Positions 32 to 39,107 of a stretch of DNA of 64,000 bases are shown one piece after another. The stretch's first letter is position 1. Each line of letters starts with the position of its first letter. The notes beneath the pieces are model-generated. The model did no database searches and was not told the DNA's origin. It saw nothing but the letters and a program-made list of their open reading frames with translations. The stretch comes from Candidatus Dormiibacterota bacterium (GTDB taxonomy: Bacteria; Chloroflexota; Dormibacteria; Aeolococcales; Aeolococcaceae): positions 11,042-75,041 of the forward strand of contig DASXNK010000107.1 of assembly GCA_036495095.1 (NCBI GenBank). Reading direction: 5' to 3'. A program made the translations under genes and the position numbers.

Positions 32-697
32 TCAGACCGCCTCCAGGTAGCTCTCGTAGAGGTCGATACGGGTGCTGAAGGGCTCCGCCTCCGGGCCCCA
101 CAGCTCGGTGGAATCGAAGCGCACCGAGTAGACGTGCTGCGGGTTCTCGGCGATGAAGTGCGCGTTGGTGTCGGGCAGCACCATCGCCGGCTGGACCCGC
201 TCCACCGTGCCCTCGCGCCGGCGCACGTAGCGGGGCAGCCGGGTGTGGCCGGAGGTGTGGAGGTCGACGGTCCGGACCCGCTGGCCGACGGCGAACCGCG
301 GGGGATCGTCGACCTGCCGGAGCGACCCGGGACCCGCCGGCTTGTAGTCCGGCCGGTTCGGCTCGGGCGCCGGCGGCTCCTCCACCGCCTCACCCCGGCG
401 GGCTCGCACCCGGGCGTCGATCGCCCCCGGCGCGAGCACGCCGGTCTCGGTCAGCAGGGTCTCGGCCATCCGCAGCCACCGGTTGTAGTAGGGGAGGGCC
501 AGGTACTCGTCCGGGGGGGTGCGGTCGATGGCGTGGCGGAAGGCGTCGAGGTTGGCTCCCGTCAGCCGGGTCTGGCACAGCGCGCCGATGGCGAAGATCC
601 GCCCCTCCCACGGCTCGTGGAACACCGGCTCGTCGCGCTCCGGGAGCTGGACCCCGCCCATGTTCTCCACGCCGCCCAGGTCGTGGATGCCGTCCAT
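32..697 (-). CDS. nthB: Nitrile hydratase beta subunit (alpha subunit expected beyond the window edge)
   Basis: 221-aa ORF beginning MDGIHDLGGVENMGG with a YYNRWL-type motif characteristic of NHase beta. RBS-like CCTCCT complement lies upstream of the start. Confidence 0.7.
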   Translation of the reverse strand: MDGIHDLGGVENMGGVQLPERDEPVFHEPWEGRIFAIGALCQTRLTGANLDAFRHAIDRTPPDEYLALPYYNRWLRMAETLLTETGVLAPGAIDARVRARRGEAVEEPPAPEPNRPDYKPAGPGSLRQVDDPPRFAVGQRVRTVDLHTSGHTRLPRYVRRREGTVERVQPAMVLPDTNAHFIAENPQHVYSVRFDSTELWGPEAEPFSTRIDLYESYLEAV

Positions 698-727
698 CTC
701 ACCTCCTCACTTTTTACAATCACTATC

Positions 728-1120
728 GTGAAGGTCACCGCCTACTGGAGTGGAGGCTACCGCTGCCGCGTGGCGGTTCGCCAGTTCGAGCTTCTCGCCG
801 ACGAGCCCGAGGAGGTCGCCGGGGGCACCGACACCGGGCCGACGCCCACCGAGCTGCTGCTCGCCTCGCTGGCGACCTGCTTCACGATGGCGCTCGCGCA
901 CGTCGCCCGCAAGCGGAGGATCGAGCTCGCCGCCGACCTCAGCGTGACCGCCGCCGGCGAGCACCACGGTCCCAGCTTCGGCGCGCTCCGGGTCGAGGTG
1001 CGCTCCAGCCAGCCGCGCGAGCAGCTCGAGCCGCTGCTGGAGCGGGCGGCGGCGCTCTGCTACGTGTCCAACACCCTGCGCGGGGCGCCCCCGGTGGAGT
1101 ACCTCATCGTGCCCGGCTGA
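728..1120 (+). CDS. OsmC/Ohr family peroxiredoxin-like protein
   Basis: C-terminal ~130 aa of the 134..1120 ORF match the OsmC fold pattern (GTDTGPTPTELLLASLATC ... ALCYVSNTL). GTG start at 728, just after the divergent nthB start. Confidence 0.65.
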   Translation: MKVTAYWSGGYRCRVAVRQFELLADEPEEVAGGTDTGPTPTELLLASLATCFTMALAHVARKRRIELAADLSVTAAGEHHGPSFGALRVEVRSSQPREQLEPLLERAAALCYVSNTLRGAPPVEYLIVPG

Positions 1121-1559: not shown

Positions 1560-2270
1560 ATGCCGCGGGTGGCGCCGGCACGCGCGCTGATCATCGAGGT
1601 CGACCCGGAATACCGCGCCGTCATCAGCTGCTGCGCCGGCCTCGCCGACGTCACCGCCGAGAGCGTGGCCACGGTCTCCGCCGGGGTGCACCGGCTCAGC
1701 GACGCCGAGTTCGACCTGGTGATCTGGGGCGTCCCGCCCGGCGACCCGCGCCGGGCGCCGGTGATCGCCCAGATCCACGAGGAGAGCACCGCGCCGCTGC
1801 TGCTGCTCGACGAGGCCGACGAGGAGTCGCGGGCGTCGTACGACGCCGGCGCCGACCAGATCCTCCCCAAGCCCTTCGTCCCCGGCCAGCTGGTCGGCGC
1901 GATCAGGGCGGCGCTTCGCGGCCCCGGCCCCACCTCGGTGGTGCCGCTGGCCACCCGCATCGAGCTCGCCGGCACCACCATCGACTCCGAGTCGCGCAGC
2001 ATCACCAGGGGCGACGGCACCGTCTCCTTCAGCAAGCGCGACTGGGAGCTGCTCACCTTCCTGCTCGCCAACCCCGGGCAGTGGTTCACCGCCGAGGACC
2101 TGGTGCGCCTCGCCTGGCGCAGCACCCGGTACTCGACCGAGCAGCTGCGCAGCTACGTGATGCGCCTGCGCCGCAAGATGGCCCCGCTGGAGCTGCCCTT
2201 CGCCGTCAACAGCCAGCAGGGCCGCGGCTACCGCTTCGATCTGGACGGGTCGGGGTCAGGCGGGAGCTGA
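1560..2270 (+). CDS. OmpR-family response regulator (receiver + winged-helix), orphan
   Basis: Receiver-like N-terminus (LIIEVDPEY ... EFDLVIWGV). C-terminal trans_reg_C-like segment (SFSKRDWELLTFLLANPGQWFTAEDLVRLAW ... GRGYRF). A low-GC promoter-like region lies upstream (1380-1555). No adjacent kinase. Confidence 0.7.
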   Translation: MPRVAPARALIIEVDPEYRAVISCCAGLADVTAESVATVSAGVHRLSDAEFDLVIWGVPPGDPRRAPVIAQIHEESTAPLLLLDEADEESRASYDAGADQILPKPFVPGQLVGAIRAALRGPGPTSVVPLATRIELAGTTIDSESRSITRGDGTVSFSKRDWELLTFLLANPGQWFTAEDLVRLAWRSTRYSTEQLRSYVMRLRRKMAPLELPFAVNSQQGRGYRFDLDGSGSGGS

Positions 2271-3755
2271 CCCGGCGACCTCGGTGGCGAGGCGGAGCAT
2301 GTCCTCCTGGGCGCGCCGGTGGTCGGCGCGCAGCGCGGCGGCGCGGGCGCCGAGGGTGCGCGCCGCCTCGGCGCAGCCGGCCGCCATCCGGGTGACCACC
2401 TCGGGGGCGGCGCCGCCGGGGGCGCTGCGGGTCTGCACGATGGCGCGCGGGTCGAGCACCTCGGTGAGGTCGGCACCGGCGAGCCCCAGGCTGCGTCCGA
2501 TCTGCTCGACCGCGGCGGCGTCGAGCATCTCCCCGGTGATGTCGATGCCGCGCAGCCCCTCGCGTCCCGCCCGGCTCACCGCGCGACCGACCACCAGGTA
2601 GGCGGTGCGGTAGTCGACGCCGCAGCTGAGCATCACGTGCTCGGCGAGGTCGGTGGCCTGGGAGAAGCCCTGGAGCAGCGCCTGCTCCATCCGCTCGGGG
2701 TGCACCCCGAGGGTCGCGACCACCTCGGCCATCAGGCGGACGACGCGGCTCGCCAGCTGCATCGAGCGGGGCACCTCGCCCTGGGCGTAGATGAGGTTGT
2801 CGCTGCGTGCCGAGGGGGTCTTGACCACCGCGAGGTAGCCGCTCAGCCGGCCGATCAGCACCCCCGCGGCGCCGCGCACGATTGCGAGCGCGTAGGGGTT
2901 GCGCTTCTGAGGCATGAGCACGCTCGACCGGGTGTAGGGGCCGGCGAGCTCGACGAAGTCGAACTCCTGGCTGTCCCAGATCTCCAGGTCCTCGGCGAGC
3001 TTGGCGAGGTTGGTGACCAGGCTGGCGGCGGTGGCGAGCAGGTCGACGAGGCCGTCGATCTGCCACATCGCGTCGCGGGTGTGCTCGATGACGCCGTCGA
3101 AGCCGAGCAGCCGGGCGATGTGGTCGCGGTCGCTGACCAGCCGGCTGCCGTTGACGCAGCCGGCGCCGCCCGGGCTCAGGTTGACCCAGTCGAGGCAGGC
3201 GAGGAGGCGGTCGGCGTCGCGCAGCGCCGGGTACGCGAAGGTGAGCAGGTAGTGCCCGAAGGTGGACGGCTGGGCCTGCTGGAGATAGGTCTGGTCGGGC
3301 ATCAGCGTGCCCGCGTGCGCCTCGCTCACCGCGGCGACGCTGGCGGCGAACCCGGCGGCCTCGGCGACCAGGTCGACGATCATCGAGCGCAGCAGCACGC
3401 GCAGCGCCACCCGCGCAGCCTCGCGCCGGGGCCGGCCGGCGTGGAGCCAGCCGGCGTCGTCGCCGATGCGCTCGACGAAGTGGCGCTCACGGCTGTTGTA
3501 GGGGTCGCCGTGGATGGCCGCATAGGGAAAGTCGGCCGCCGCCACCCCGTGGGTCTCGACGAGCAGGGCGAGCAGCCGCCGCGCCACCGGCTCGGGGACG
3601 ATGCCGCGGGCACGCAGGTCGAGGACGTGGGCGATGTCGGCGAGGGTGAGGCCCTCGTGGAGCAGCGGCGCGTCGGCGATCTCGAGGGCGAAGCCGGCCT
3701 CGACCAGCGATGCCGCCGGGGCCTCGTCCGAGGCGCCGTGGCCGCCCCGGCTCAC
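2256..3755 (-). CDS. Fumarate-lyase superfamily enzyme, argininosuccinate-lyase-like
   Basis: Contains the class II fumarase/aspartase signature SSVLMPQKRNP. ~500 aa. GTG start overlaps the upstream gene stop (GTGA). Confidence 0.75.
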   Translation of the reverse strand: MSRGGHGASDEAPAASLVEAGFALEIADAPLLHEGLTLADIAHVLDLRARGIVPEPVARRLLALLVETHGVAAADFPYAAIHGDPYNSRERHFVERIGDDAGWLHAGRPRREAARVALRVLLRSMIVDLVAEAAGFAASVAAVSEAHAGTLMPDQTYLQQAQPSTFGHYLLTFAYPALRDADRLLACLDWVNLSPGGAGCVNGSRLVSDRDHIARLLGFDGVIEHTRDAMWQIDGLVDLLATAASLVTNLAKLAEDLEIWDSQEFDFVELAGPYTRSSVLMPQKRNPYALAIVRGAAGVLIGRLSGYLAVVKTPSARSDNLIYAQGEVPRSMQLASRVVRLMAEVVATLGVHPERMEQALLQGFSQATDLAEHVMLSCGVDYRTAYLVVGRAVSRAGREGLRGIDITGEMLDAAAVEQIGRSLGLAGADLTEVLDPRAIVQTRSAPGGAAPEVVTRMAAGCAEAARTLGARAAALRADHRRAQEDMLRLATEVAGSAPA

Positions 3756-4732
3756 AGCGCGCTCCCCGCGCCGGCGGGGGCGAGCGCCACCGCCGTGCCG
3801 CCGGTGTGCCAGAAGAGCACCGGCCCGCCGGCGCCGGCGGCGAGCAGCCGGGGGAGCACGCCGAGCGCCTTGGCGGTGAAGGCGGGGTCCAGGACCAGCC
3901 CCTCGTGGGCGGCGGCGAGGGAGGCGGCTCTCGCCCCCTCGATCGAGGCCTGCCCGTAGCCGGGCCCGCGGGCGTCGTGGACCTCCACCGCGGCGGCCGG
4001 CGGCGGCGGCACGCCGAGGAGCCGGGCGCCGGTGCCGGCGAGCTCCAGCACCCGCGCCGCGGTCTCCTCCACGGGGCGGCTCACCGCGGCGCCGGCCACC
4101 CGCAGCCGCCGGCCCGCCGCGGTGAGGCCGGCGAGCAGGCCCGCCTGGGTCACCCCCGAGCCGGTGGCCAGCAGCAGCAGCGCCGGCTCCACGCCGGCGG
4201 CGTCGAGCTGGTCGAGCGCCTCGGCCGCGGCGGCGGCGTAGCCGAGGACAGCCACGTCCCGGGCACCCCCCCGGGGGATCGCATAGGGACGGCGGCCGGC
4301 GGCGCGCAGCTCCGCGGCGGCGGCCTCCAGCCCGGCGTCGACGGACTCGCGGCGGGGGTCGCCGGTGAAGCGCACCGTGGCGCCGAAGCCGCGGGCGAGC
4401 ACCAGGTTGGGGTGGGGGATCGCCGGCTCGCCGCCGTACAGCACCAGGGTGCAGCCGAGCCCGGCGACCGCGGCCGCGGCGGCGGCTCCCTGGCACCAGC
4501 TGGAGGCGGGGCCGCCGCCGGTGAGGAGCACGTCGCAGCCGGTGGCGAGGGCATCGCCCACCAGGAACTCGAGCGACCGGGTCTTGTTGCCGGCGAGCGC
4601 GAAGCCGCAGAGGTCGTCGCGCTTGCACCAGAGCGGCGGCGCCCCGAGCACGCGCTCCAGCCGCTCGAGGCGCACCAGCGGGGTGGGGAGCAGCGCCAGG
4701 CGCAGCCGGGCGGCGGCGGTGGTCAGCGCCAC
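3752..4732 (-). CDS. PLP-dependent ACC deaminase / D-cysteine desulfhydrase / cysteate sulfo-lyase (CuyA) family enzyme
   Basis: Motif WCKRDDLCGFALAGNKTRSLEFLV matches the ACC-deaminase family lysine region. ~326 aa. GTG start overlaps the upstream lyase stop. Confidence 0.75.
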   Translation of the reverse strand: MALTTAAARLRLALLPTPLVRLERLERVLGAPPLWCKRDDLCGFALAGNKTRSLEFLVGDALATGCDVLLTGGGPASSWCQGAAAAAAVAGLGCTLVLYGGEPAIPHPNLVLARGFGATVRFTGDPRRESVDAGLEAAAAELRAAGRRPYAIPRGGARDVAVLGYAAAAAEALDQLDAAGVEPALLLLATGSGVTQAGLLAGLTAAGRRLRVAGAAVSRPVEETAARVLELAGTGARLLGVPPPPAAAVEVHDARGPGYGQASIEGARAASLAAAHEGLVLDPAFTAKALGVLPRLLAAGAGGPVLFWHTGGTAVALAPAGAGSAL

Positions 4733-6084
4733 GGGTCGGGCTCGGCGGCGAGGGCGGCGCGTCCCCGCCGCACCGCGGCGTCGACGATGGCCCCGGCGCT
4801 GCCCGCGCCGGCGGCGACCGGCGGGCCGCCACCGGCGTCGCCGAGGTCGACGTGGTCGCGGAGCGCCTCCTCCAGGCTCTCGCCGCGCTCCTGACCGGCC
4901 CGCAGCGCCGCCTGCAGCAGGCTCTGGGCGCGGTGCCTGCCGATCCGGGGGGCGAGCTCGGCGAGCAGCGCCTCGGAGGCCGCGTACCCACCGCCGGCGC
5001 CGAGGTTGGCCAGCATCCGTTCGCCGTCCACCTCCAGGCCGTCGAGCAGCCGCCGGGCCAGCGCCAGGGCGGCGCCGGTGAGCAGGCAGGCCTCGGGGAG
5101 GGCGATCCACTCCGCCTTCCAGGCGCGCCCGTCGCGCTCGTGCTCGCCGACCATTCCCTCGAGCAGGGTCGCCGCCTGCTGGCGAACCAGCCGGGCGAGG
5201 GTGCCGAGATGCTCCGCGGCCTCGGGATTGCGCTTGTGGGGCATGGTGATGCTGCCCACCGCACCCGCCGCGGCGGGCTCCCGCAGCTCGCCGATCTCGG
5301 GGCGCTGGAGCTGGTACACCTCGGTGCCGATCCGCGCCAGGGTGGCGGTGACCATCGCCAGCAGGTGGCCGAACTCGGCGACCCGGTCGCGGGCGGTGAG
5401 CCATGGCACCAGCGGGTCGGCGAGGCCGAGGCGGGCGCAGAAGCGCGCCCGCAGCTCGAGGCCGTTCTCGCCGAAGAAGGCGAGGGTGCCGACGCCGCCG
5501 CCGAGCTGGCCGGCGAGCCAGCGCGGCGCCCCCTCGGTGAGCCGCTCGCGGTGGCGCCGGACCTCGTCGGCCCAGGAGGCGGCCTTGAGGCCGAAGCTGA
5601 TCGGCGACCCCGGCTGGCCGTGGGTGCGGCCCGGCATCAGGGTGTCGCGGTGGCGCTCGGCGAGGTCGAGCAGAAGGCCCTCGACCGCACCCAGGTCCCG
5701 CCACACCACCCGTCCGACCCGGCGCATCGCCAGCGCTGTCCAGGTGTCGGTGAGGTCCTGCACGGTGGCCCCGTAGTAGACGTGCTCCGCCGCCTCGGCG
5801 GGCAGCAGCCGCCGCAGCGCCGCGATCAGCCCGAGGGTGGAGTGCGAGGTGCTCCGGGTGACCTCGGCGGCGAGGTCGAGGTCGACCAGCTCGACCCGGG
5901 CGGCGGCCGCGATCGCCTCCGCCGAGGCGGCGGGGATCAGGCCCAGCTCGGCCTGGGTGGCGGCGAGGGCGGCGAGGATGTCCAGCCACGACTGCAGCCG
6001 CGCCTCCTCGTCGAAGACGGCGCGCATCTCGTCGGTGCCCCACAGGTGGGCGTAGAGACGCGAGTCGCTCAGGCGGGCGCCCAT
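4723..6084 (-). CDS. Fumarate-lyase superfamily enzyme, adenylosuccinate lyase / 3-carboxymuconate cycloisomerase (PurB/PcaB)-like
   Basis: Signature GSITMPHKRNP, 454 aa. ATG start at 6084 overlaps the upstream gene stop. Confidence 0.75.
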   Translation of the reverse strand: MGARLSDSRLYAHLWGTDEMRAVFDEEARLQSWLDILAALAATQAELGLIPAASAEAIAAAARVELVDLDLAAEVTRSTSHSTLGLIAALRRLLPAEAAEHVYYGATVQDLTDTWTALAMRRVGRVVWRDLGAVEGLLLDLAERHRDTLMPGRTHGQPGSPISFGLKAASWADEVRRHRERLTEGAPRWLAGQLGGGVGTLAFFGENGLELRARFCARLGLADPLVPWLTARDRVAEFGHLLAMVTATLARIGTEVYQLQRPEIGELREPAAAGAVGSITMPHKRNPEAAEHLGTLARLVRQQAATLLEGMVGEHERDGRAWKAEWIALPEACLLTGAALALARRLLDGLEVDGERMLANLGAGGGYAASEALLAELAPRIGRHRAQSLLQAALRAGQERGESLEEALRDHVDLGDAGGGPPVAAGAGSAGAIVDAAVRRGRAALAAEPDPWR

Positions 6085-6947
6085 GCCGGCTCCGCGATCC
6101 GTGCGACCTCGCCCAGGCCCTCGCGGACCAGCTCCAGCGACGCTCCCCAGGGCACCGTGACCCGCCCCGGCGTCACCTCCAGGTGCTCCTCGAGCAGGCA
6201 GCACTTGGTCAGCACCGGCGCCGGCGCCGCCATCCGCCGCGGGCAGATGTCGATCCGCTCGGCGTCGGCGCCGTAGAACCAGTGGTGGATCTCGCGGGAG
6301 CGCTCGCAGCCGAGCAGCAGCCAGTCGCGGTGGGGAGGATGCTGATCGAGGTAGGCGACCTCCACGCCCTCGAGCACGATCCCCGAGCCCCGGCAGGGCA
6401 GCAGCCGGTCGCGGCCGTCGCCGCCGTTCGCTCCCAGCTCGCGGAGATCGACGAGGTGGGGCACCAGCTCGATGGGGGGCAGGTCGTCGGCCACGGCCAG
6501 CACCCGGCGGCACTGGTCGAACAGCTTGGGCGGCTCCGGCGGCACCACCTCGACGACGGTGATGCGCAGCGGCCGGGGGTCGAGGATGAAGTTCAGGTGC
6601 TCGTAGCGCCCGTGCACGACCACGCAGCGCACCCCGGGGGCGTGCCGCCCGGCGGCGGCGGCGAGCTGGGTGGGCACCGCGGTGTCGACCTCGGCCAGGT
6701 GGAGCAGCGCGCACTCGTGGGGGAGGGCGAGGATCTCCACCGCGGTGATCGGCGAGAAGAGCGGCTCCTCGGTGGCCCGGTCGACCCGCACCACCGCGGT
6801 CTGCTCGCCGTGGCGGGCGATGATGTAGCGGGTCCGCCGGTAGGAGTCGCGGCCGAGCAGGTGCTGCCGGAGCGACGCCGGGTCGAGGGGGCGGTCGAGC
6901 TCGGCGACGGAGACGTCGCGGTAGCGCCGGGGGACGAGGTTGCTCAT
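6069..6947 (-). CDS. Hypothetical protein, operon-embedded
   Basis: 292-aa ORF overlapped at both ends with flanking operon genes. No recognisable motif apart from a conserved-looking C-terminus (LTKCCLLEEHLEVTPGRVTVPWG). Confidence 0.5.
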   Translation of the reverse strand: MSNLVPRRYRDVSVAELDRPLDPASLRQHLLGRDSYRRTRYIIARHGEQTAVVRVDRATEEPLFSPITAVEILALPHECALLHLAEVDTAVPTQLAAAAGRHAPGVRCVVVHGRYEHLNFILDPRPLRITVVEVVPPEPPKLFDQCRRVLAVADDLPPIELVPHLVDLRELGANGGDGRDRLLPCRGSGIVLEGVEVAYLDQHPPHRDWLLLGCERSREIHHWFYGADAERIDICPRRMAAPAPVLTKCCLLEEHLEVTPGRVTVPWGASLELVREGLGEVARIAEPAWAPA

Positions 6948-7732
6948 GTCCCCGCGGCGGCGGCGACCTCACCCTCGCCGCAGCTCAGCTCGATGGTGTC
7001 GGCGCGCAGCCCCAGCCGCAGCGCCTCGAGGCCGAGCACCTCGGCGGGCACCACGTTGCCGAGGCCGGCGTCGGCGCCGAGCCGGCGGATGAACCACGCC
7101 TGCTGGTCCTTGCGGGGAGCCTCGAAGATCACCCGGTGGCGGGTCGCCCGGAGGAGCGCGTCCACCAGCTCGGCGCGGACCGTGCCGTCCGCCGAGTAGA
7201 GCCCGACGGTGCCGCTCTCGCGGCCCTCGGCGACCACCCAGGTGGCGCCGGCCTCGAGGTCGCCGGCGGCCTCCTCGGCCCAGGCGAAGGCGTGCACCGG
7301 GGCGTCCGGCTGCTTCGCCCCGACCTCGGCGAGCACCGTGAACCGGCGCGCGGCGCGCTCGATGAGGTCCCGCTTGGCGGCGAGCGGCAGCCGGCGGGTG
7401 CCGTTGGAGACCTCGACGCAGGGGAAGCCGGCCTCCTCCGCCCAGTCGAGCAGCCGCTCGGCGGCGCCCTGCACCCAGGCCACCTCGAGCAGGGTGCCGC
7501 CCACGCACGCCTCCACCGCGTGCTCCCGGAGAATGGCCACCCTGTCCGCCACCCGAGGATCGAGGTACGCCGTGCCCCAGCCGAGCTTCCAGACGTCGAC
7601 GTGGCCGGCGCACAGGTCGAGGAGCGCGGACATCTCCGGGAGCGGCATCCCGCGGTCGAGAACGTGGGTGATCCCCGCTCGCCGGGGCTTCGAGCTGCGC
7701 GAGGGGAGCTCGAGGAAATCGGGATGCGGCAT
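6944..7732 (-). CDS. comA: (2R)-phospho-3-sulfolactate synthase (ComA) family protein
   Basis: N-terminal SKPRRAGITHVLDRGMP matches the ComA KPRxxGLTxVxDKG pattern. ~262 aa. ATG start at 7732. Confidence 0.7.
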   Translation of the reverse strand: MPHPDFLELPSRSSKPRRAGITHVLDRGMPLPEMSALLDLCAGHVDVWKLGWGTAYLDPRVADRVAILREHAVEACVGGTLLEVAWVQGAAERLLDWAEEAGFPCVEVSNGTRRLPLAAKRDLIERAARRFTVLAEVGAKQPDAPVHAFAWAEEAAGDLEAGATWVVAEGRESGTVGLYSADGTVRAELVDALLRATRHRVIFEAPRKDQQAWFIRRLGADAGLGNVVPAEVLGLEALRLGLRADTIELSCGEGEVAAAAGT

Positions 7733-7762: not shown

Positions 7763-8740
7763 GTGCAAGTTGGGCCGCCGGTGACCGAGCTCGACGCGGT
7801 GGTGCGGACCGTCCGCGAGGGGCCGGGACTGCGCGCCAAGGCAGCCCTCGCGCTGGTCAGCGACGTGTTCGGGCCCAGCGACTGGACCGGCGGTCCCGGC
7901 GACGACGCCGCCGTCGTCGACGCCGGCGGGGGCCGGGTGGTGGCCGGTGGCGAGGCGCTCTGGCCGCCCTTCGTGGCCGCCGACCCGCGGGGCGCGGGCA
8001 TCGCCGCGGTGGTCGCCAACGTCAACGACGTCTGCGCCATGGGGGCGCGGCCGCTCGCGATCCTCGACACCGTGATCGCCCCCGAGCCGGTGGCGCGCCT
8101 GGCCCTGGAGGGGATGCGCCACGCCGCCGCCCTCTACGGGGTGCCGGTGGTGGGCGGGCACCTGACCATCCGCGATGGTCCGCCGGCGATCTCCGCCTTC
8201 GGGCTCGGCGAGCTGCGCGGCCCGGTGCTCAGCTCCCGCCACGTCGCCCCCGGTCAGGCGCTGCTCCTCGCCTGCTGCCTGGAGGGGACGATGCGCGCCG
8301 ACTTCCCCTACTTCTCCTCCCTGGCGGAGCGGGGCGAGCGCCTCGCCGGGGACGTCCGGCTGCTCCCCGAGCTCGCCGAGGAGGGGATCTGCGTCGCCGC
8401 CCGCGACGTCAGCATGGCCGGGGTGCTGGGCTCGCTGGCGATGCTCCTCGAGCCCACCGCCGCCGGCGCCTGCGTCGACCTCGACGCCCTGCCCCGGCCC
8501 GCCGGGGTGCCGCTGACCAGCTGGGTGATGGCCTTTCCCGCCTACGGCTTCCTGCTCTGCGCCGACCCCGGTGCCGTCGAGGCCTGCCGGGCCCGGTTCG
8601 CCGCCCGCGGCCTCGCCTGCGAGGTGATCGCCACCGTCGACGGCGGCGGCGAGCTGCGGGTGCGTGGGGGAGGGGAGGAGCGGCGGGTGCTCGACCTCCG
8701 CAGCGAGCCGGTCACCGGGCTGCGGCTGAGGGCGGAGTGA
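7763..8740 (+). CDS. AIR synthase-related (PurM/HypE/ThiL superfamily) protein, sll0787-like
   Basis: PurM-like N- and C-domains (AAVVANVNDVCAMGARPLAILDTV ... GGHLTIRDG ... ARDVSMAGVLGSL). Divergent from comA by ~30 bp. GTG start chosen in frame. Confidence 0.65.
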   Translation: MQVGPPVTELDAVVRTVREGPGLRAKAALALVSDVFGPSDWTGGPGDDAAVVDAGGGRVVAGGEALWPPFVAADPRGAGIAAVVANVNDVCAMGARPLAILDTVIAPEPVARLALEGMRHAAALYGVPVVGGHLTIRDGPPAISAFGLGELRGPVLSSRHVAPGQALLLACCLEGTMRADFPYFSSLAERGERLAGDVRLLPELAEEGICVAARDVSMAGVLGSLAMLLEPTAAGACVDLDALPRPAGVPLTSWVMAFPAYGFLLCADPGAVEACRARFAARGLACEVIATVDGGGELRVRGGGEERRVLDLRSEPVTGLRLRAE

Positions 8741-9912
8741 TCCGCATCGGCGCCGGGGAGCGCCGGGCCCGGCTGGCGCGGCGCCACCACCTCGCGCCGG
8801 CCGCCCGCGCGTCCGGCCCGGTCGAGGTGGCCGCCGGCCTCGTCGCCCTCCACGCCACCGACCCGGCCACGGTGTTCCTCGCCGCCGCCGCGCGGATGCG
8901 CCTCCCCGAGACCGCGGCCGTCGAGCGGGCGCTCTACGAGGACCGCGTTCTGGTGCGGATGCTCGGGATGCGCCGGACCATGTTCGTGGTGCCCCGCGAC
9001 CTGGTGGGGGTGGTGCAGGCGTCGAGCACCCGGGCGATCGCGGCCCTGGAGCGGCGCCGGAGCCTGCAGCTGCTGGAGGGGGCGGGGATCGGCGGCGACC
9101 TCGCCGCCTGGCTCGCCGGGGTCGAGGAGGCCACCCTGGCCGCGCTCGCCGCCCGCGGCGAGGCGACCGGGGCGGAGCTGTCCGCGGACGTGCCCGGGCT
9201 GCGCACCCGGGTGCTGCTCTCCGAGGGCAAGCCCTACGAGAGCCTGCAGAACATCACCACCCGGGTGCTGACCCTGCTCGCCGCCGACGGGCGCATCGTC
9301 CGCGGCCGGCCCCGCGGCACCTGGATCTCCAGCCAGTACCGGTGGTCGCCGGTGGAGGCGTGGCTGCCCGGCGGGGTGGCGGAGTGGACCGCCGAGGCGG
9401 CCCGGGCCGAGCTGGTGCGCCGCTGGCTCGCCGCCTACGGCCCCGGCACCGAGGCCGACCTGCGCTGGTGGACGGGATGGACGGCGGCCCAGGTGCGCGC
9501 CGCCCTCGCCAGCTGCGGCGCGGTGGCCGTCGACCTCGACGGCGTCCCCGGCCTGGCGCTCCCCGGCGACCTCGAGCCCGAGCCGGCGGCCGAGCCGTGG
9601 GTGGGGCTGCTCCCCGCCCTCGACCCCACGGTGATGGGCTGGGCCGGGCGCGACTGGTACCTGGGCGAGCACGGCCCGGCCCTCTTCGACCGCTCCGGCA
9701 ACGCCGGTCCCACGGTGTGGTGGGACGGCCGGATCGTCGGGGGCTGGGGTCAGACCCCGGCTGGCGGCGTCGCCGTCGAGCTCCTGGAGGACGTCGGGGC
9801 GGAGCCGGCGGTGGCGGTGGAGGAGGCGGCCGCGACGCTGGGCGGCTGGCTCGGCGGGGTCAGGGTCACCCCCCGCTTCCGGACGCCGCTGGAGCGGCGG
9901 CTCAGCTCCTGA
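8737..9912 (+). CDS. Winged-helix DNA-binding protein of the AlkZ/YcaQ (HTH_42) DNA-glycosylase family
   Basis: ERALYEDRVLVRMLGMRRTMFVV and the overall pattern match the AlkZ-like family. GTG start overlaps the upstream stop (GTGA). Confidence 0.65.
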   Translation: MIRIGAGERRARLARRHHLAPAARASGPVEVAAGLVALHATDPATVFLAAAARMRLPETAAVERALYEDRVLVRMLGMRRTMFVVPRDLVGVVQASSTRAIAALERRRSLQLLEGAGIGGDLAAWLAGVEEATLAALAARGEATGAELSADVPGLRTRVLLSEGKPYESLQNITTRVLTLLAADGRIVRGRPRGTWISSQYRWSPVEAWLPGGVAEWTAEAARAELVRRWLAAYGPGTEADLRWWTGWTAAQVRAALASCGAVAVDLDGVPGLALPGDLEPEPAAEPWVGLLPALDPTVMGWAGRDWYLGEHGPALFDRSGNAGPTVWWDGRIVGGWGQTPAGGVAVELLEDVGAEPAVAVEEAAATLGGWLGGVRVTPRFRTPLERRLSS

Positions 9913-10678
9913 GGGTCGCCTCGACGCCGCGGACGTCCCCGTCCTCGTCGACGAGCACGCCGGGGTCCGCGTAGCCGAGGCGGGCGAGGTCGCCGGCGAG
10001 CGCGCCCGCCTGGGCACCGCCGAGCTCGAGCAGGAGCGCGCCGCCTCGCCGGAGGAAGCGGACGCTGCCGGCGACGACGCGGCGGAGGACCTCGGTGCCG
10101 TCGGGGCCGCCGTCGTAGGCCAGCGCCGACTCGAAGGCGAAGGTGTCGCGCTGCAGCAGCGGCAGCTCCGGGGTGGGCACGTAGGGCACGACCGCCACGA
10201 CGACGTCGACGCGTCCCTCGAGGGTGGGCGGCAGCGGGGCGAAGAGGTCGCCGCGGTATGCCTCGACGCCGTTCGCCGCCGCGCAGGCGACGGCACGCTC
10301 GTCGAGGTCGGAGCCCACCACCCGCGCCCCGGGGTGGCGGGTGGCCAGCACCCGGGCGATCGCCCCCGACCCGGTGCAGAGGTCGATCGCCACGCCGTTC
10401 GCGGGCAGGCGCTCGGCGGCCCGGCACGCGAGCCGCTCGCTCTGCCAGCGGGGGACGTAGACCCCGGGGTCGACGCGGACCCCCACACCGCAGAACACGA
10501 CGCCGCCGGTGATCCAGGCGAGCGGCTCGCCGGTGAGCCGGCGCGCGACCAGCGACTCGAGGAGGCCGGCGTCGCCGGCGGCGCACGCCAGCAGCTCGCC
10601 GGCCTCCTCCGCCGCCGCGATGAAGCCGGCGACCGCCAGCCTGGCGGTGAGCACCTCGAGGTCGTTGGCCATCCGCAC
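9902..10678 (-). CDS. Class I SAM-dependent methyltransferase, HemK/PrmC-like
   Basis: Motif IDLCTGSGAIARVLA (SAM-binding GxGxG) and HemK-like N-terminal region. 258 aa. Confidence 0.7.
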   Translation of the reverse strand: MRMANDLEVLTARLAVAGFIAAAEEAGELLACAAGDAGLLESLVARRLTGEPLAWITGGVVFCGVGVRVDPGVYVPRWQSERLACRAAERLPANGVAIDLCTGSGAIARVLATRHPGARVVGSDLDERAVACAAANGVEAYRGDLFAPLPPTLEGRVDVVVAVVPYVPTPELPLLQRDTFAFESALAYDGGPDGTEVLRRVVAGSVRFLRRGGALLLELGGAQAGALAGDLARLGYADPGVLVDEDGDVRGVEATLRS

Positions 10679-10761
10679 CAGTACACCACGGGCACACCGC
10701 CGTCACCGTCTCGTTACCCGGTGCGGAGTAGTGGCCGCCGTATACTCGGCGCCGGATAGTC

Positions 10762-11439
10762 ATGAACGAGCCACGCCGCGACATCACCAACCCCCTCGCG
10801 CTGGCGGTCCTCGCGCTGCTCTTCGAGCGGCCGATGCACCCCTACGAGATCGCCTCGCTGATGCGCGAGCGCGCCATCCACGAGGCGATCAAGCTCAACT
10901 ACGGCTCGCTGTACACCGTCGTCGACCTGCTCCTCCGCCACGGGCTGATCGAGGCCCAGAGCACCGCTCGCGACGGGCGGCGCCCGGAGCGCACCGTGTA
11001 CCGGCTGACCGACGCCGGCCGTGCCAGGTTCCGGGGCTGGCTGCGGGAGCTGCTCCGCACCCCCGCCAAGGAGTACACCCAGTTCGCCGCCGGGCTCGCC
11101 TTCGCCGCCGCGGTGGGCATCGACGAGCTCGGCTCGCTGCTCGAGGAGCGTGCCGGCCGCATCGAGGCCGAGCTCGCCGAGGCGCGAGGGATCTTTGCGG
11201 ACCTCACCGCGAGGGGCCTGCCCCGGCTCTTCACGCTCGAGGGCGAGCACGCGATGGTGCTCCGCACCGCCGAGCTGGAGTGGGTCCGCGGCGTGATCGC
11301 CGCCATCGCCGGCGGCCGCCTCGCCCTCCCCACCGCGGAGGAGATGGCCGTCCTCCACCAGAACTTCCCCACCGCCGCGCCGATGCCGGCGCAGAGCGAC
11401 GGATCCGCACCTTCACCCCGAGAGGAGACGCCCCTGTGA
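10762..11439 (+). CDS. PadR-family transcriptional regulator
   Basis: N-terminal winged helix LALAVLALLFERPMHPYEIASLM ... GSLYTVVDLLLRHGLIE is typical of PadR. Confidence 0.8.
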   Translation: MNEPRRDITNPLALAVLALLFERPMHPYEIASLMRERAIHEAIKLNYGSLYTVVDLLLRHGLIEAQSTARDGRRPERTVYRLTDAGRARFRGWLRELLRTPAKEYTQFAAGLAFAAAVGIDELGSLLEERAGRIEAELAEARGIFADLTARGLPRLFTLEGEHAMVLRTAELEWVRGVIAAIAGGRLALPTAEEMAVLHQNFPTAAPMPAQSDGSAPSPREETPL

Positions 11440-12383
11440 TCGAGACCAATGGGCTGCGCCGCAGCTTCACGACCCGGCGGGGCGAGGTCGAGGCCGTCGC
11501 CGGCATCGACCTCCGCGTCGACGCCGGCGAGATCGTCGGCTTCCTCGGCCCCAACGGGGCGGGGAAGACCACCACCCTGCGGATGCTGACCACCCTGCTC
11601 GTGCCCAGCGGCGGCGAGGCCACCGTGGCCGGCTGCGACCTGCTCCGCGAGCCCCGTCAGGTGCGCGAGCGGATCGGCTACGTCGCCCAGGGCGGCTCCA
11701 CCGATCCCACCGTCACCGGCCGCCACGAGATGGTGCTCCAGGCCCGCCTCTACGGGATGGACCGCGCCACCGCCGAGGCGCGCGCCGCCGAGGTGCTCGG
11801 CGCCCTCGACCTCACCGCCTGCGCCGACCGCAAGGGCGGCACCTACTCGGGCGGCCAGCGCCGCCGCCTCGACCTCGGGCTGGGCCTGGTCCACAAGCCG
11901 CAGCTGCTCTTCCTCGACGAGCCCACCACCGGGCTCGACCCGCAGAGCCGCGCCCACCTCTGGGACGAGATCCGCGGCCTCCGCGAGCGGGGCACCACGG
12001 TGTTCATCACCACCCACTACCTCGACGAGGCCGACGCCCTCTGCGACCGCCTGGCGATCATCGACCACGGCCGCATCGTCGCCGAGGGCACCGCCGAGGA
12101 GCTGAAGCGGGATGTCGCCGGCGACGTGGTCACCGTGGGCGTCCTCGAGGACGTCGACGCGGCGCTGCGGCTGCTCCAGCACCAGCCCTTCGTGCGCGAG
12201 GCCACCGTCGACGAGGGCACCGTGCGCCTCTACGTGGAGCGCGGCGAGGCCGCCATGCCGCTGATCCTCCGCCTCCTCGACGGCGGCGGGCTGACCCTGC
12301 AGACCATCTCGCTGGCGCGGCCGTCGCTCGACGACGTGTTCCTCCGCCAGACCGGCCGCTCGCTCCGCGACGAGGCCGCATAG
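11436..12383 (+). CDS. ABC transporter ATP-binding protein (DrrA-like)
   Basis: Walker A GPNGAGKTT, signature YSGGQRRRL, Walker B LLFLDEPTTGLD. Start overlaps the PadR stop (GTGA). Confidence 0.85.
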   Translation: MIETNGLRRSFTTRRGEVEAVAGIDLRVDAGEIVGFLGPNGAGKTTTLRMLTTLLVPSGGEATVAGCDLLREPRQVRERIGYVAQGGSTDPTVTGRHEMVLQARLYGMDRATAEARAAEVLGALDLTACADRKGGTYSGGQRRRLDLGLGLVHKPQLLFLDEPTTGLDPQSRAHLWDEIRGLRERGTTVFITTHYLDEADALCDRLAIIDHGRIVAEGTAEELKRDVAGDVVTVGVLEDVDAALRLLQHQPFVREATVDEGTVRLYVERGEAAMPLILRLLDGGGLTLQTISLARPSLDDVFLRQTGRSLRDEAA

Positions 12384-12389
12384 GAGACC

Positions 12390-13154
12390 GTGATGAGAGT
12401 CCTCCGCGACAGCTGGCTGGTCTTCCAGCGGAGCATGGGCCAGACCCTCCGAAACCCGGTGTGGGTCGTGGTCGGGCTCATGCAGCCGATCTACTACCTG
12501 TTCCTCTTCGGCCCGGTGTTGAAGAAGGTCGCCGAGTCGTCGCCCGACTACGGCGGCAACGCCTACGACATCTTCGTCCCCGCGCTGCTCGTGCAGATGG
12601 CGCTCTTCGGCTGCGTCTTCGTCGGCTTCGGCCTCATCGCCGAGCTGCGCTACGGGGTCATCGAGCGGATGCGCGTGACCCCGATGAGCCGGCTGTCGAT
12701 GCTCCTCGGCCGGGCTGGCCGCGACATCGCCGTGCTGCTCTTCCAGTCGGCGCTGCTGGTGGTGATGTCGATCCCCTTCGGCCTGCACATCACCGCGACC
12801 TCGATCGCCATCATCAGCGTCCTCCTGGTGCTCATCGGGCTGGGGATGGCCTGCCTCTCCTACGGCCTCGCGCTCAAGCTGCGCAGCGAGGACGCGATGG
12901 CGCCGCTGCTCAATGCCATCTTCCTGCCGATCATGCTGCTCAGCGGCATGCTGCTTCCTCTGAGCCTGGCTCCCGCCTGGTTGCAGGGGGTGGGCCACGC
13001 CAACCCGTTCTACTACGCGGTCGAGGCGGCCCGGAAGGCGTTCCAGACCCCGGTCGCGGGCGGAACGGTCCTGGGTGGCATCGCGGTCGCCGCCGCTCTC
13101 GCCGCCGTCACCATCACCTGGGCGGCCCGCTCCTTCGGGCGGTCGGTGGCCTAA
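12390..13154 (+). CDS. ABC-2 type transporter permease (DrrB-like)
   Basis: 254-aa polytopic hydrophobic protein immediately downstream of the ATPase. Confidence 0.8.
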   Translation: MMRVLRDSWLVFQRSMGQTLRNPVWVVVGLMQPIYYLFLFGPVLKKVAESSPDYGGNAYDIFVPALLVQMALFGCVFVGFGLIAELRYGVIERMRVTPMSRLSMLLGRAGRDIAVLLFQSALLVVMSIPFGLHITATSIAIISVLLVLIGLGMACLSYGLALKLRSEDAMAPLLNAIFLPIMLLSGMLLPLSLAPAWLQGVGHANPFYYAVEAARKAFQTPVAGGTVLGGIAVAAALAAVTITWAARSFGRSVA

Positions 13155-13648
13155 ACCGGTCCCAGCGCGATCACCATGTCCTGGTGCGGCCTGCCGAGAT
13201 AGTCGGCAGGCCCACCCAGGGCGGTCCAGCCGAGGCGGCGGAAGAAGCGCACGTTGGCCACCTGCACGTGGGCGCGCATCACCCGGCCGCCGCGCTCGCC
13301 GGCGGTGCGCACCGCGTAGCGCACCAGCGGTTCGGCGACGTGGCGGGCCCGGTAGGCGGGCAGCACGCTGAGCCGGTCGCCCACCCAGACGCCCTCGCCG
13401 TCGAGGTCGAACAGCCGCACCGTCCCCGCCACCTCGCCGTCGCAGAAGCCGAGCACGTGGAGGGTCGTCGGGTCGGCGTCGCGGTCGTCGAGGTCGGTGA
13501 TCGCGAAGATCCCCTGCTCGTCGACGAAGACGCGCTCGCGGATGCGCAGGTGCACCTCGAGCTCGCCCGGCGAGGCCACCGGCCGGCAGTGGACGGTGGG
13601 CGGGCTAGTGGAGAGGGCGAAGGGGGATGCGCTCGAGGTCGTCACCAC
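13151..13648 (-). CDS. GNAT family N-acetyltransferase (MSMEG_0567/Sll0786-like)
   Basis: GNAT core RIRERVFVDEQ ... GTVRL. Sits immediately downstream of the radical SAM gene; the annotated start overlaps the rSAM 3' end, so the true start may be internal. Confidence 0.65.
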   Translation of the reverse strand: MVTTSSASPFALSTSPPTVHCRPVASPGELEVHLRIRERVFVDEQGIFAITDLDDRDADPTTLHVLGFCDGEVAGTVRLFDLDGEGVWVGDRLSVLPAYRARHVAEPLVRYAVRTAGERGGRVMRAHVQVANVRFFRRLGWTALGGPADYLGRPHQDMVIALGPV

Positions 13649-14741
13649 CGCTGCTCCGTTCCATGACTCCCATCACCGAGCACGCCTGGCAGCGGGCGCA
13701 GCCGGCGCGCACCGTCCCGGAGCTGATGCCGCGGGCCTGGAGGTGCGGCACCACCCGCCGGTAGATCGCGTCCATCCGCTCCGCCGGCGGCGGCGAGCAC
13801 GCCTCCATCAGGCTGCCCGGCACCGGCCGCAGCGGCACCACGAAGGGATAGACGCCGAGGTCGATGGCGCGCAGGCAGCCCTGCACGGTGACCTCGGGGT
13901 CCTCGCCCATGCCGATGATCACGTAGGTCGAGACCTGGCCGCGGCCGAAGAGCTCGACCGCCCGCTCCCAGGCGGCGAAGTAGCCCTCGATGCCGGTGCG
14001 CGCCTTCGCGGGGGCGATGCGGGCGAGCACCGCGGGGTCGAAGGACTCGACGTGGATGCCGACCGAGTCGACGCCGGCGTCGTGGACCCGGTCGAGCGCC
14101 GCGAGGTCGCCCGGGGGCTCGAACTGCGCCTCGATGGGCAGGCCGCTCGCCTCCTTGATCGCCGCCGCGCAGCGCGCCAGGTAGAGGGCGCCGCGGTCGG
14201 GGCCGTGGGTGCTGCCGGTGGTGAGGGTGACGTCGACCGCGCCGTCGAGGTCGCGCGCGGCCACCGCCACCGCGGCGAGGTGCTCGGGTCGCTTCACCCG
14301 CACCGTGCTCCCCGCCTGCAGGGTCAGCTCGATGCCGCAGAAGTGGCACTGGTCCTCGGTGTCCCAGTACGCGCAGGTCTGGATCACCGTGCTCGCCAGC
14401 GAGTCGAGGTGGAGGAGGGCGATCTTCCAGTAGGGGATGCCGTCGTCGGTGGTGAGGTCGTAGTACCGGGGACGCGCCGGCGCCGCCGCCGAGGCGAGGC
14501 GGACGCCCCCGCGGTAGATGCCCCAGCCCTCGTCCTCGCGTCGCATGGTGTACGGCGACCCGGCGACGTACGCGGCCGTCACCGGGACGGTCACCGGCAC
14601 CCCCTCGACGTGGATCATCCCCGCGTCGGAGGGGCCCGCGCCGCCACGCCGGGCCTCGACCGGCCCCTCCAGCCGCACGCCGCGGCTCTGCAGCTCGGTG
14701 AGCAGCCGTCCCAGGTCGGGCGTCACCGGAACAGTGGCCAT
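13605..14741 (-). CDS. Radical SAM protein (MSMEG_0568-like)
   Basis: Cys cluster CAYWDTEDQCHFC plus a C-terminal CARCQAC motif. ATG at 14741 preceded by a GGAGG-type RBS. ~378 aa. Confidence 0.65.
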   Translation of the reverse strand: MATVPVTPDLGRLLTELQSRGVRLEGPVEARRGGAGPSDAGMIHVEGVPVTVPVTAAYVAGSPYTMRREDEGWGIYRGGVRLASAAAPARPRYYDLTTDDGIPYWKIALLHLDSLASTVIQTCAYWDTEDQCHFCGIELTLQAGSTVRVKRPEHLAAVAVAARDLDGAVDVTLTTGSTHGPDRGALYLARCAAAIKEASGLPIEAQFEPPGDLAALDRVHDAGVDSVGIHVESFDPAVLARIAPAKARTGIEGYFAAWERAVELFGRGQVSTYVIIGMGEDPEVTVQGCLRAIDLGVYPFVVPLRPVPGSLMEACSPPPAERMDAIYRRVVPHLQARGISSGTVRAGCARCQACSVMGVMERSSGGDDLERIPLRPLH

Positions 14742-15587: not shown

Positions 15588-16541
15588 ATGAGGCACACGG
15601 TCGTGCTGGCGCTGGGCGGCAACGCCCTCACCCCTCCGGACCAGTCAGGGGCCTGGGAGCAGCAGCGCGCCAACGCCGTGCCCCTCGCCCGCGCCGCCGC
15701 CGCCCTTCTCCACGCCGGCTGGCGGGTGGCGATCAGCCACGGCAACGGCCCCCAGGTCGGCGCTCTCGCGCTGCAGCAGGAGGCGGGCGCCTCCGGCGTC
15801 GCCGCCCAGCCGCTCCACGCGGTGGGGGCGATGACCCAGGGCCAGATCGGCAGCCTGCTGGCGATGGCGCTCGCAGAGGTCTGCGACGGCGGCGTCTCGG
15901 TGGTCTCCGTGGTCACCCACATGGTGGTGGCCGAGCCGGCGCCGGGCGCGGTGCCGACCAAGCCGATCGGCCCCTTCTACCCGCGGGAGCGGGCGCTGGA
16001 GCTGGCCGCGGAGCGGGGCTGGGCGGTGGTCGACGACGCCGGCCGGGGCTGGCGGCGGGTGGTCGACTCCCCCGAGCCGCTGGAGATCGTCGAGGCGCGG
16101 GCGGTCCGCGACCTCGTCGATGGCGGCCACCTGGTGATCGCGTGCGGCGGCGGCGGCATCCCGGTGACCCGCCGCGACGGCCGCCTCGACGGGGTCGAGG
16201 CGGTGATCGACAAGGACCTCGCCGCCTGGCGGCTGGCGGTGGAGCTGGGGGCGGGCGTGCTCGCGCTGGTCACCGGGGTGGACTGCGTCAGCCTCGACCA
16301 CGGCACCCCTCGCGAGCGGGCGATCACCGAGATGTCCCTGGCCGAGTCGGAGGCACTCGACAGCGCCGGGCACTTCCCCCCGGGGAGCATGGGTCCCAAG
16401 GTGGCCGCCGCCCGCCGCTTCGTCCGCGACGGCGGCGAGCTCGCGGTGATCACCTCGGCGGAGCACGTGCTCGAGGCGGTCGAGGGACGGCACGGCACCC
16501 GCATCGTCGCCGGCACGGGCACCGTGAGGGCGTCGGCTTGA
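15588..16541 (+). CDS. arcC: Carbamate kinase
   Basis: ALGGNAL, ISHGNGPQVG, KPIGPFY, ACGGGGIPV, EAVIDKDLA and GSMGPKV motifs all match the carbamate kinase family. Confidence 0.8.
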   Translation: MRHTVVLALGGNALTPPDQSGAWEQQRANAVPLARAAAALLHAGWRVAISHGNGPQVGALALQQEAGASGVAAQPLHAVGAMTQGQIGSLLAMALAEVCDGGVSVVSVVTHMVVAEPAPGAVPTKPIGPFYPRERALELAAERGWAVVDDAGRGWRRVVDSPEPLEIVEARAVRDLVDGGHLVIACGGGGIPVTRRDGRLDGVEAVIDKDLAAWRLAVELGAGVLALVTGVDCVSLDHGTPRERAITEMSLAESEALDSAGHFPPGSMGPKVAAARRFVRDGGELAVITSAEHVLEAVEGRHGTRIVAGTGTVRASA

Positions 16542-39106: not shown

Positions 39107-39107
39107 G

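Follow-up and report, generated by a model that had tools for sequence, protein, structure and literature searches.

Predicted coenzyme M biosynthesis genes linked to Nit1C-type genes in a Candidatus Dormiibacterota bacterium

The window, as we call the whole stretch of DNA analysed here, comprises 64,000 nt of a Candidatus Dormiibacterota genome (GenBank assembly GCA_036495095.1, contig DASXNK010000107.1, positions 11,042 to 75,041 of the forward strand), and near its left end five consecutive, co-oriented and overlapping genes lie on the minus strand at 2256-7732, which we propose to be an operon for the synthesis of coenzyme M (CoM, 2-mercaptoethanesulfonate). The organism is a high-GC soil bacterium, and its nearest relatives are metagenome-assembled genomes labelled Chloroflexia, Chloroflexota or Candidatus Dormiibacterota. 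Because the G+C content of the window is about 75%, raw lists of open reading frames (ORFs) were crowded with spurious frames; gene frames were set by third-position GC analysis and inspection of start codons. The first gene, comA (xcbB), runs from an ATG at 7732 to 6944 and encodes a 262-aa protein of the phosphosulfolactate synthase family. It is followed by xcbA (6947-6069, 292 aa, a DUF7714 protein), xcbD (6084-4723, 453 aa, a PurB/CMLE-like protein in the aspartase-fumarase superfamily), xcbE (4732-3752, 326 aa, a pyridoxal phosphate (PLP) enzyme with the D-cysteine desulfhydrase/ACC deaminase fold) and xcbC (3755-2256, 499 aa, ArgH-like). Independent JGI gene calls, made on a metagenomic contig with the identical sequence (JGI 3300036845), yield the same five product lengths, and the frame analysis reproduces exactly the five-gene overlapped operon reported at this position in an earlier reading of the DNA (the original prediction). 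That reading had described the genes as coupled through GTGA and ATGA junctions, which is correct for comA/xcbA (ATGA) and xcbE/xcbC (GTGA), while the xcbA/xcbD and xcbD/xcbE junctions are longer overlaps of 16 and 10 nt, respectively. Overlaps of 4 to 16 nt would couple translation across the whole xcbB(comA)-xcbA-xcbD-xcbE-xcbC series. A gene for an OmpR/PhoB-type regulator (1560-2270, plus strand; Trans_reg_C, with weak receiver-domain similarity) is convergent with xcbC and is present in two to three close relatives only; the 3' ends of the two genes overlap by 15 nt (2256-2270), and there is therefore no space for a terminator between them.

The best NCBIfam or Pfam match of all five proteins was an Xcb model or ComA. 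In Pfam, ComA was matched with an E-value of 1e-73 (248 bits, cutoff 25), DUF7714 with 9e-93, Lyase_1 with 3e-39 in XcbD and with 2.5e-33, together with ASL_C2, in XcbC, and PALP with 8e-34 in XcbE. The 292-aa protein, which the original prediction had regarded as lacking a recognisable family, also matched the NCBIfam XcbA family (NF052538) with 341 bits against a cutoff of 150, and XcbD exceeded its own model (NF052536, 626 bits, cutoff 600). XcbE was the top NCBIfam model for the PLP enzyme (283 bits, cutoff 450) and XcbC that for the ArgH-like protein (439 bits, cutoff 575), while ComA scored 236 with the archaeal equivalog model (cutoff 280). The reference for these families is the xcbABCDE coenzyme M cluster of Xanthobacter autotrophicus Py2, the subject of Wu (2022, PMC9457059) and reportedly of Partovi (2018). 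Identities between the window proteins and the reconstituted Py2 enzymes were 39-48%, as compared with 36-45% between Nocardioides sp. JS614 and Py2 and 44-58% between the window and JS614; ComA was 42% identical to Py2 XcbB and 52% to JS614 ComA, XcbD 48% and 58% identical to its Py2 and JS614 counterparts, and XcbE 47% identical to Py2 XcbE. ComA aligned end to end with the solved phosphosulfolactate synthases 1u83 and 1qwg, with the common blocks KxGWGT, GGTLxE, EVGxK, EGRESG and FEAP intact, which bears out the earlier proposal that this homologue makes phosphosulfolactate. XcbE keeps the PLP-lysine motif GNKTR and the C-terminal HTGG, and in XcbA C185, C214, C235, C249 and C250, as well as two histidines, are conserved with the Fe-S-containing Py2 protein.

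For the ArgH-like protein we derived an XcbC signature from an alignment of this protein with Mycobacterium tuberculosis argininosuccinate lyase (ASL), the XcbC proteins of Py2 and JS614, and 57 family members. Where an ASL is expected to have the conserved SRNDQ, a T-H pair with the catalytic histidine and GSSxMPxKxNP, the window protein has PRREA, TY and RSSVLMPQKRNP. The replacement of SRNDQ by PRREA ((A/P)RREA in the family) and of the catalytic TH by TY is the same as in Py2 XcbC, as is that of the ASL segment TGSSIMPQKKNPD by RSSVLMPQKRNPY (family form R(A/S)S..(L/M)PQKRNPY), and YNRDLQ of ASL is changed to ..DN.. in XcbC-type proteins, including that of the window. These replacements are invariant or nearly so across the 60 family sequences, and since the ASL motifs are replaced as in the characterised XcbC, we identify the ArgH-like protein as XcbC and not as ASL; genuine ArgH residues, which the original prediction had named as evidence against itself, are not what it carries. 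The ArgH equivalog model (TIGR00838), its next-best match, scored 273.7 against a cutoff of 279.5. The PurB-like protein stayed below the cutoffs of TIGR00928 (263.7, cutoff 326.2) and PRK08937 (431, cutoff 626), and its closest solved proteins were CMLE, Tad1 and CreD, not adenylosuccinate lyase (ADL). That the two lyases are not housekeeping ArgH and PurB had been foreseen correctly.

Judged by sequence, the five genes are orthologous to the characterised CoM pathway of Xanthobacter Py2, and we put at about 0.8 the probability that xcbB(comA)-xcbA-xcbD-xcbE-xcbC is a single operon making CoM from phosphoenolpyruvate (PEP), sulfite and cysteine, as in Py2. The five Py2 enzymes have been reconstituted (PMC9457059), and each window protein would repeat the step of its Py2 counterpart. 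ComA would add sulfite to PEP to form phosphosulfolactate, as Py2 XcbB/ComA does, and the ArgH-like XcbC would remove the phosphate to leave sulfoacrylate, the elimination carried out by Py2 XcbC. The PurB-like XcbD would then add the thiol of L-cysteine to sulfoacrylate, giving 3-sulfopropionyl-cysteine, a reaction that in Py2 forms a C-S and not a C-N bond. The PLP enzyme XcbE would cleave and decarboxylate this adduct to sulfoethanethioaldehyde, the product of Py2 XcbE, and XcbA, a [2Fe-2S] protein in Py2 that reduces the thioaldehyde to CoM, would complete the pathway in the same way. The view of the operon as a dedicated sulfonate pathway is upheld by the best-matching models and by the reconstituted orthologues. 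This chemistry has been known since 2018-2022; what the papers that we searched do not describe is the lineage and the genomic context.

Several points weigh against CoM as the product. The assignment of CoM synthesis to this organism and its clade is drawn from orthology with Py2, and XcbC, XcbE and ComA score below the curated NCBIfam cutoffs given above. No solved structure for any Xcb enzyme was found in the structure comparison of the window proteins, and for XcbD and XcbE there are no solved structures supplying substrate-binding residues for a residue-level check of specificity. No known CoM-consuming enzyme is encoded nearby, so that CoM as the end product has no independent sign, and an AllG-like gene lies directly 3' of xcbC on the same strand in most of the related loci described below, so that a pathway intermediate could be diverted. 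With regard to the scores, the corresponding JS614 proteins, run as a control against the same models, also fell below the cutoffs (XcbC 378, XcbE 315, ComA 217 bits); as JS614 is a CoM-dependent oxidiser of ethene and vinyl chloride, the cutoffs are too narrow to exclude orthology.

The window operon differs from that of Py2 (pXAUT01, Xaut_5051-5055) in gene order, which is B-A-D-E-C instead of A-B-C-D-E, although the five families, the XcbC substitutions and the XcbA cysteines are the same. It differs also in its surroundings, as the Py2 cluster directly follows 2-hydroxypropyl-CoM lyase (EaCoMT), 2-KPCC and CoM dehydrogenases on an alkene-catabolic megaplasmid, none of which is found in the window. 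On pNOCA01 of Nocardioides sp. JS614 and pMYCCH.01 of Mycolicibacterium chubuense NBB4 the order is identical to that of the window, with comA followed by XcbA, ADL-like, PLP and ASL-like genes. The actinobacterial CoM clusters associated with etn genes are carried on plasmids, with SDR, CoA-transferase and ethene/vinyl-chloride genes at their flanks (PMC8727900), whereas Nit1C-type genes surround the window cluster. Both the JS614 cluster and the window cluster have a CoADR-like flavoprotein gene nearby, although the flavoprotein family of the window is only about 35% identical to the JS614 protein. With the PEP-dependent methanogen pathway (ComA-ComB-ComC-ComDE) only the ComA step is shared; homologues of ComB, ComC and ComDE were not found here and the later steps use unrelated enzymes, in keeping with the description of the bacterial pathway as convergent with that of methanogens (PMC9457059).

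We annotated 54 of the 59 predicted genes of the window with Pfam, and selected ones with NCBIfam. Divergent from comA, across a 48-bp spacer, is a gene for an AIR-synthase-like protein of the sll0787 family (7781-8740, plus strand; TIGR04049, 267 bits, just under the cutoff of 321). Its second-best family was 'methanogenesis marker 2' (TIGR03267, 165 bits), which may be a coincidental resemblance; this marker is an uncharacterised protein of methanogens, the other lineage that uses CoM. The idea that the AIR-synthase-like protein carries a HypE-like protein-bound thiocyanate was rejected, since it has no C-terminal cysteine. Further along lie an MSMEG_0567/Sll0786-family GNAT gene of the Nit1C nitE type (13151-13648, minus strand; TIGR04045, 100 bits, cutoff 68), an MSMEG_0568-family radical SAM gene of the nitD type (13605-14726, minus strand; TIGR04043, 396 bits, cutoff 304), a carbamate-kinase-family gene (15588-16541, plus strand; arcC, 329 bits, cutoff 358; PRK12352, 268 bits, cutoff 266) and an MSMEG_0565-family GT4 glycosyltransferase gene (16538-17734, plus strand; TIGR04047, 379 bits, cutoff 260). 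The carbamate kinase gene abuts the GT4 gene here (15588-17734), the FdrA-like gene that lies between them in most Actinomycetota being missing. On the other side of the operon are an OsmC/Ohr-like gene of the thiol peroxidase family (617-1120, plus strand; Pfam OsmC) and the beta subunit of a nitrile hydratase (32-697, minus strand; NHase_beta_N and NHase_beta_C). In L001, the contig identical to this one, the alpha subunit of the nitrile hydratase (alpha-subunit family TIGR01323, 292 bits, cutoff 250) and an accessory gene lie immediately left of the window, together with genes for an AllG-like protein, a helix-turn-helix-cupin regulator and a pyridine-nucleotide disulfide oxidoreductase. 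The AllG-like gene is thus just outside the window, and AllH was not seen in this lineage. No CN_hydrolase, and hence no nitrilase of the Nit6803 family, was present among the annotated window genes, the nitrile hydratase being present instead.

Alkene monooxygenase, the epoxyalkane:CoM transferase EaCoMT (EtnE/XecA), 2-KPCC and CoM dehydrogenase were all absent from the Pfam annotations of the 54 window genes. In tblastn searches of the window and 84 loci (1.34 Mb), the EaCoMT of Py2 gave no matches and 2-KPCC only weak, generic flavoprotein similarity. An ordinary alkene-degradation island was rejected on these grounds.

XcbA relatives number more than 2,000 in the protein database, the closest coming from metagenome-assembled genomes labelled Chloroflexota, Candidatus Dormibacteraeota and Actinomycetota, and, when a single genome was scanned for each species, 313 places that encode one turned up. 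We compared the best 80 of these, with 10 kb on either side, their genes being called and clustered without prior selection; as they are the loci most similar to the XcbA of the window, the counts are not proportions among all xcb clusters. They belong mostly to soil Actinomycetota, with Dormibacterota in addition, and the cultured carriers among them include Streptomyces chiangmaiensis (JCM 16577), a Nonomuraea strain, Pseudonocardia spinosispora (DSM 44797) and P. sulfidoxydans (NBRC 16205). The recurrent order begins with a CoADR-like gene and Sll0783, followed by GT4, FdrA-like and carbamate kinase genes pointing left, radical SAM and GNAT genes pointing right and the AIR-synthase-like gene pointing left; from there comA, xcbA, xcbD, xcbE, xcbC, the AllG-like gene and OsmC all point right. 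The CoADR-like flavoprotein is of the single-cysteine type, with the motif YSPCGIPY. Nitrile hydratase (alpha, beta and accessory) and an AllH-like gene are also frequent.

Each xcb gene of the five occurs in 32-33 of the 33 full-flank loci, the AllG-like gene in 31, the AIR-synthase-like gene in 29, OsmC in 28 and the CoADR-like flavoprotein in 27. Radical SAM, GNAT and Sll0783 genes were each found in 24 of these loci, and at least one of the AIR-synthase-like, radical SAM and GNAT genes in 31. Over all 80 loci the counts were 53 for OsmC, 42 for GNAT, 39 for radical SAM, 37 for carbamate kinase and 33 for GT4, and the AIR-synthase-like gene adjoins and diverges from comA/xcbA in 56. Gene calling missed xcbE in 13 loci, but tblastn detected the gene, and the loci truly without it number only 4. 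In a midpoint-rooted neighbour-joining tree of XcbD, which is indicative only, the alkene-type proteins of Py2 and JS614 fall outside a large Nit1C-linked clade that holds the window protein. The xcb genes are physically linked to Nit1C/gpr genes in the 80 closest loci, over three phyla.

Variations on this arrangement were also observed. Loci L021, L050, L072 and L084 have only xcbA-xcbD-xcbC, with comA and xcbE absent from their usual positions, and OsmC, AllG and AllH come next; the two absent genes may be located elsewhere, or the pathway may be truncated. In the Pseudonocardiales-type loci L011, L017, L019, L020, L039, L060, L065, L073 and L080, a protein of about 700 aa with two AAA domains (family f23), Cdc48/FtsH-like by the appearance of its sequence, and a 94-aa protein (f16) recur upstream of OsmC, beside the OsmC and AIR-synthase-like genes. 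The Pseudonocardia loci L074, L076 and L081 have instead a gene for a LarE-type sacrificial sulfur transferase upstream (TIGR00268, 285 bits).

The neighbours of the window operon belong to the same curated families as the Nit1C/gpr cluster (nitBCDEFGH; Synechocystis sll0783-0787; M. smegmatis MSMEG_0565-0572): the radical SAM, GNAT and GT4 proteins exceed their cutoffs and the AIR-synthase-like protein falls just short, while the MSMEG_0572/Sll0783 family, also of the Nit1C type, is found in the related loci. Two differences stand out, namely that Nit1C has a Nit6803-type nitrilase where the window has a Co-type-looking nitrile hydratase nearby, and that classical Nit1C clusters lack the xcb genes. 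An independent case, read from the RefSeq annotation, is plasmid pSS37A-Re-1 of Methylocystis iwaonis, on which OsmC-comA-xcbA-xcbD-xcbE-xcbC lies beside, and divergent from, radical SAM, GNAT and AIR-synthase-like genes; this organism is an alphaproteobacterium, its XcbA is 45% identical to that of the window, and its locus has the canonical Nit6803 nitrilase and a Pnap_2097 protein but no nitrile hydratase. The linkage of xcb to Nit1C-type genes, and not to alkene genes, in Actinomycetota, Dormibacterota and Methylocystis is a context not described in the literature that we searched. Nit1C/gpr itself is known by phenotype, namely cyanide assimilation, induction by nitrogen starvation and peroxide resistance (PMC7815647, PMC6039565), and in a 2021 paper its biochemical function was still called obscure, about 15 years after its description (PMC7815647).

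Among the other explanations of the operon, the one that survives best accepts Xcb-type chemistry and holds that the product is not free CoM. An intermediate (sulfoacrylate, 3-sulfopropionyl-cysteine or the thioaldehyde), or CoM itself, would then be built into a larger sulfonated thiol metabolite by the AllG-like, GT4, GNAT, radical SAM and AIR-synthase-like enzymes, whose genes are co-transcribed with the operon or adjacent to it. The AllG-like gene immediately 3' of xcbC in about 50 loci is consistent with this, as are the four loci in which xcbE and comA are not in the cluster and the position of the Nit1C-linked XcbD proteins in a clade apart from the alkene-type ones; moreover, the GT4 protein (second-best matches MshA and BshA), the GNAT protein, the CoADR-like reductase and OsmC resemble low-molecular-weight thiol systems. 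However, the five Xcb functions are kept together in nearly all full-flank loci, the conserved redox residues of XcbA argue that the pathway proceeds to the thiol, and classical Nit1C clusters work without xcb, so that their accessory genes need no Xcb-derived building block (PMC7815647). We regard a product other than free CoM as unlikely.

A far smaller chance remains for the model of the original prediction, in which the ArgH-like and PurB-like proteins act as C-N lyases or synthases that place aspartate-derived nitrogen on a sulfonated C3 unit, or run the reverse catabolic route, with a PLP enzyme of the CuyA (cysteate sulfo-lyase) type. Both lyases do belong to the aspartase/fumarase superfamily, the solved relatives of the PurB-like protein include the nitrosuccinate lyase CreD, and CuyA is the second-best NCBIfam match of the PLP enzyme. 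Yet the CuyA equivalog (NF052482) gave 222 bits against a cutoff of 450, below the XcbE score of the same protein, and the nitrosuccinate lyase model gave 278 (cutoff 650) for a protein that exceeds the XcbD cutoff. In place of the ASL motifs SRNDQ and TH the ArgH-like protein has the XcbC signature, and the reconstituted orthologues perform phosphate elimination and C-S bond formation with cysteine, showing no C-N chemistry with aspartate (PMC9457059). Neither a sulfonate importer nor a desulfonating enzyme was found in the cluster. The least credible explanation, that the lyases are ordinary arginine and purine paralogues beside a ComA gene used for sulfolactate, can point to an argH score only slightly under its cutoff and is contradicted by the replaced catalytic and substrate-binding motifs of ASL, by the purB score (264 against 326) and by the strict synteny of the five-gene set in 80 loci of several phyla. 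The new C-N/sulfonate pathway proposed at first is replaced by the known chemistry of CoM synthesis, and the interest moves to where the operon lies.

If the operon makes CoM, we infer that the cofactor is not meant here for alkene or epoxide metabolism and that it serves the neighbouring set of Nit1C/gpr-like, nitrile hydratase, carbamoyltransferase and disulfide-reductase genes, its most likely role being that of a small thiol carrier or a redox thiol. A role of this kind in nitrile or cyanide-nitrogen metabolism is suggested by the conserved company of the operon, which consists of a nitrile hydratase or nitrilase, an AllFGH-like carbamoyltransferase with carbamate kinase, a CoADR-like flavoprotein and an OsmC protein. 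In a conceivable cycle, the nitrile hydratase (or nitrilase) would hydrate a CoM thiocyanate or other nitrile adduct and so form S-carbamoyl-CoM, which the AllFGH-like carbamoyltransferase would phosphorolyse to carbamoyl phosphate and CoM. Carbamate kinase would then yield ATP, CO2 and NH3, and the CoADR-like flavoprotein and OsmC would manage the thiol/disulfide couple of CoM. Such a cycle, if it exists, would explain the phenotypes published for Nit1C/gpr in nitrogen starvation, cyanide assimilation and peroxide resistance. We suggest tentatively, as a possibility and with the odds against it, that a large and varied clade of xcb operons, spread over soil Actinomycetota, Dormibacterota and certain Alphaproteobacteria, provides the orphan Nit1C/gpr system with CoM, which would extend the use of CoM beyond methanogens and alkene oxidisers. 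A 2024 paper still confined the known occurrence of CoM biosynthesis genes to methanogens and aerobic alkene users (PMC11507031); here a complete xcb set is present, and no CoM-consuming alkene enzyme was found in the window or the loci searched. Specialists would be surprised by the linkage of xcb to Nit1C, which opens an orphan cluster of long standing to experiment; should CoM be the Nit1C cofactor, both the use of CoM by soil bacteria and the function of Nit1C become testable in the cultured carriers.

Within the 48-bp spacer between comA and the AIR-synthase-like gene, a putative -10 hexamer, TACTAT (7745-7740, minus strand), lies 7 nt upstream of the comA ATG, and no Shine-Dalgarno sequence was seen upstream of comA when the sequence was read directly. 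In 45 of 67 comA genes a TANNNT hexamer precedes an in-frame start by 5-9 nt, in most cases by 7 nt; counted at the called start, it is found in 23 of the 67 as compared with 18 of 678 other genes. Leaderless mRNAs are well established in actinobacteria, and this is the background to our reading of the hexamer spacing: the putative -10 element points to a transcription start at the start codon of comA and to a leaderless mRNA. In Nocardioidaceae-type loci (L022, L026, L035, L037, L042, L064, L078, L082 and others) a TGTCGGAAAGTGAAC(G) block is strongly conserved at a distance of about 20-45 nt upstream of comA, where it closely precedes the -10-like hexamer; the window sequence differs there. 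The TGTCGGAAAGTGAAC block may be an operator or a -35 region serving the divergent promoters of comA and the AIR-synthase-like gene. No convincing GlnR box was found in the intergenic region between these two genes.

Between the AIR-synthase-like and GNAT genes, the region 8737-13154 (mixed strands) encodes, by Pfam, an AlkZ-like DNA glycosylase, a methyltransferase, a PadR regulator, a DrrA-like ABC ATPase and an ABC-2 permease. It is a lineage-specific insertion that splits the conserved set, since it occurs only in the closest relatives (L005, L007, L008 and L028), and it looks like a self-resistance or efflux module. A natural-product cluster, considered on account of the AlkZ-like, DrrAB-like and PadR genes, was rejected because these genes are confined to those relatives and interrupt the conserved set.

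Scans of the window gave no Rfam families and no tRNAs. Farther from the operon, at 35918-42739, two tandem transporters of the RND/MMPL type (1062 and 1053 aa, ACR_tran) are separated by a 157-aa ORF with no family match. At 57122-60460 (minus strand) a 1112-aa protein of STAND-type signalling architecture has an adenylate/guanylate cyclase domain joined to an AAA_16/NACHT-like ATPase and to TPR repeats, and a Crp-family regulator is encoded near it at 55446-55979.

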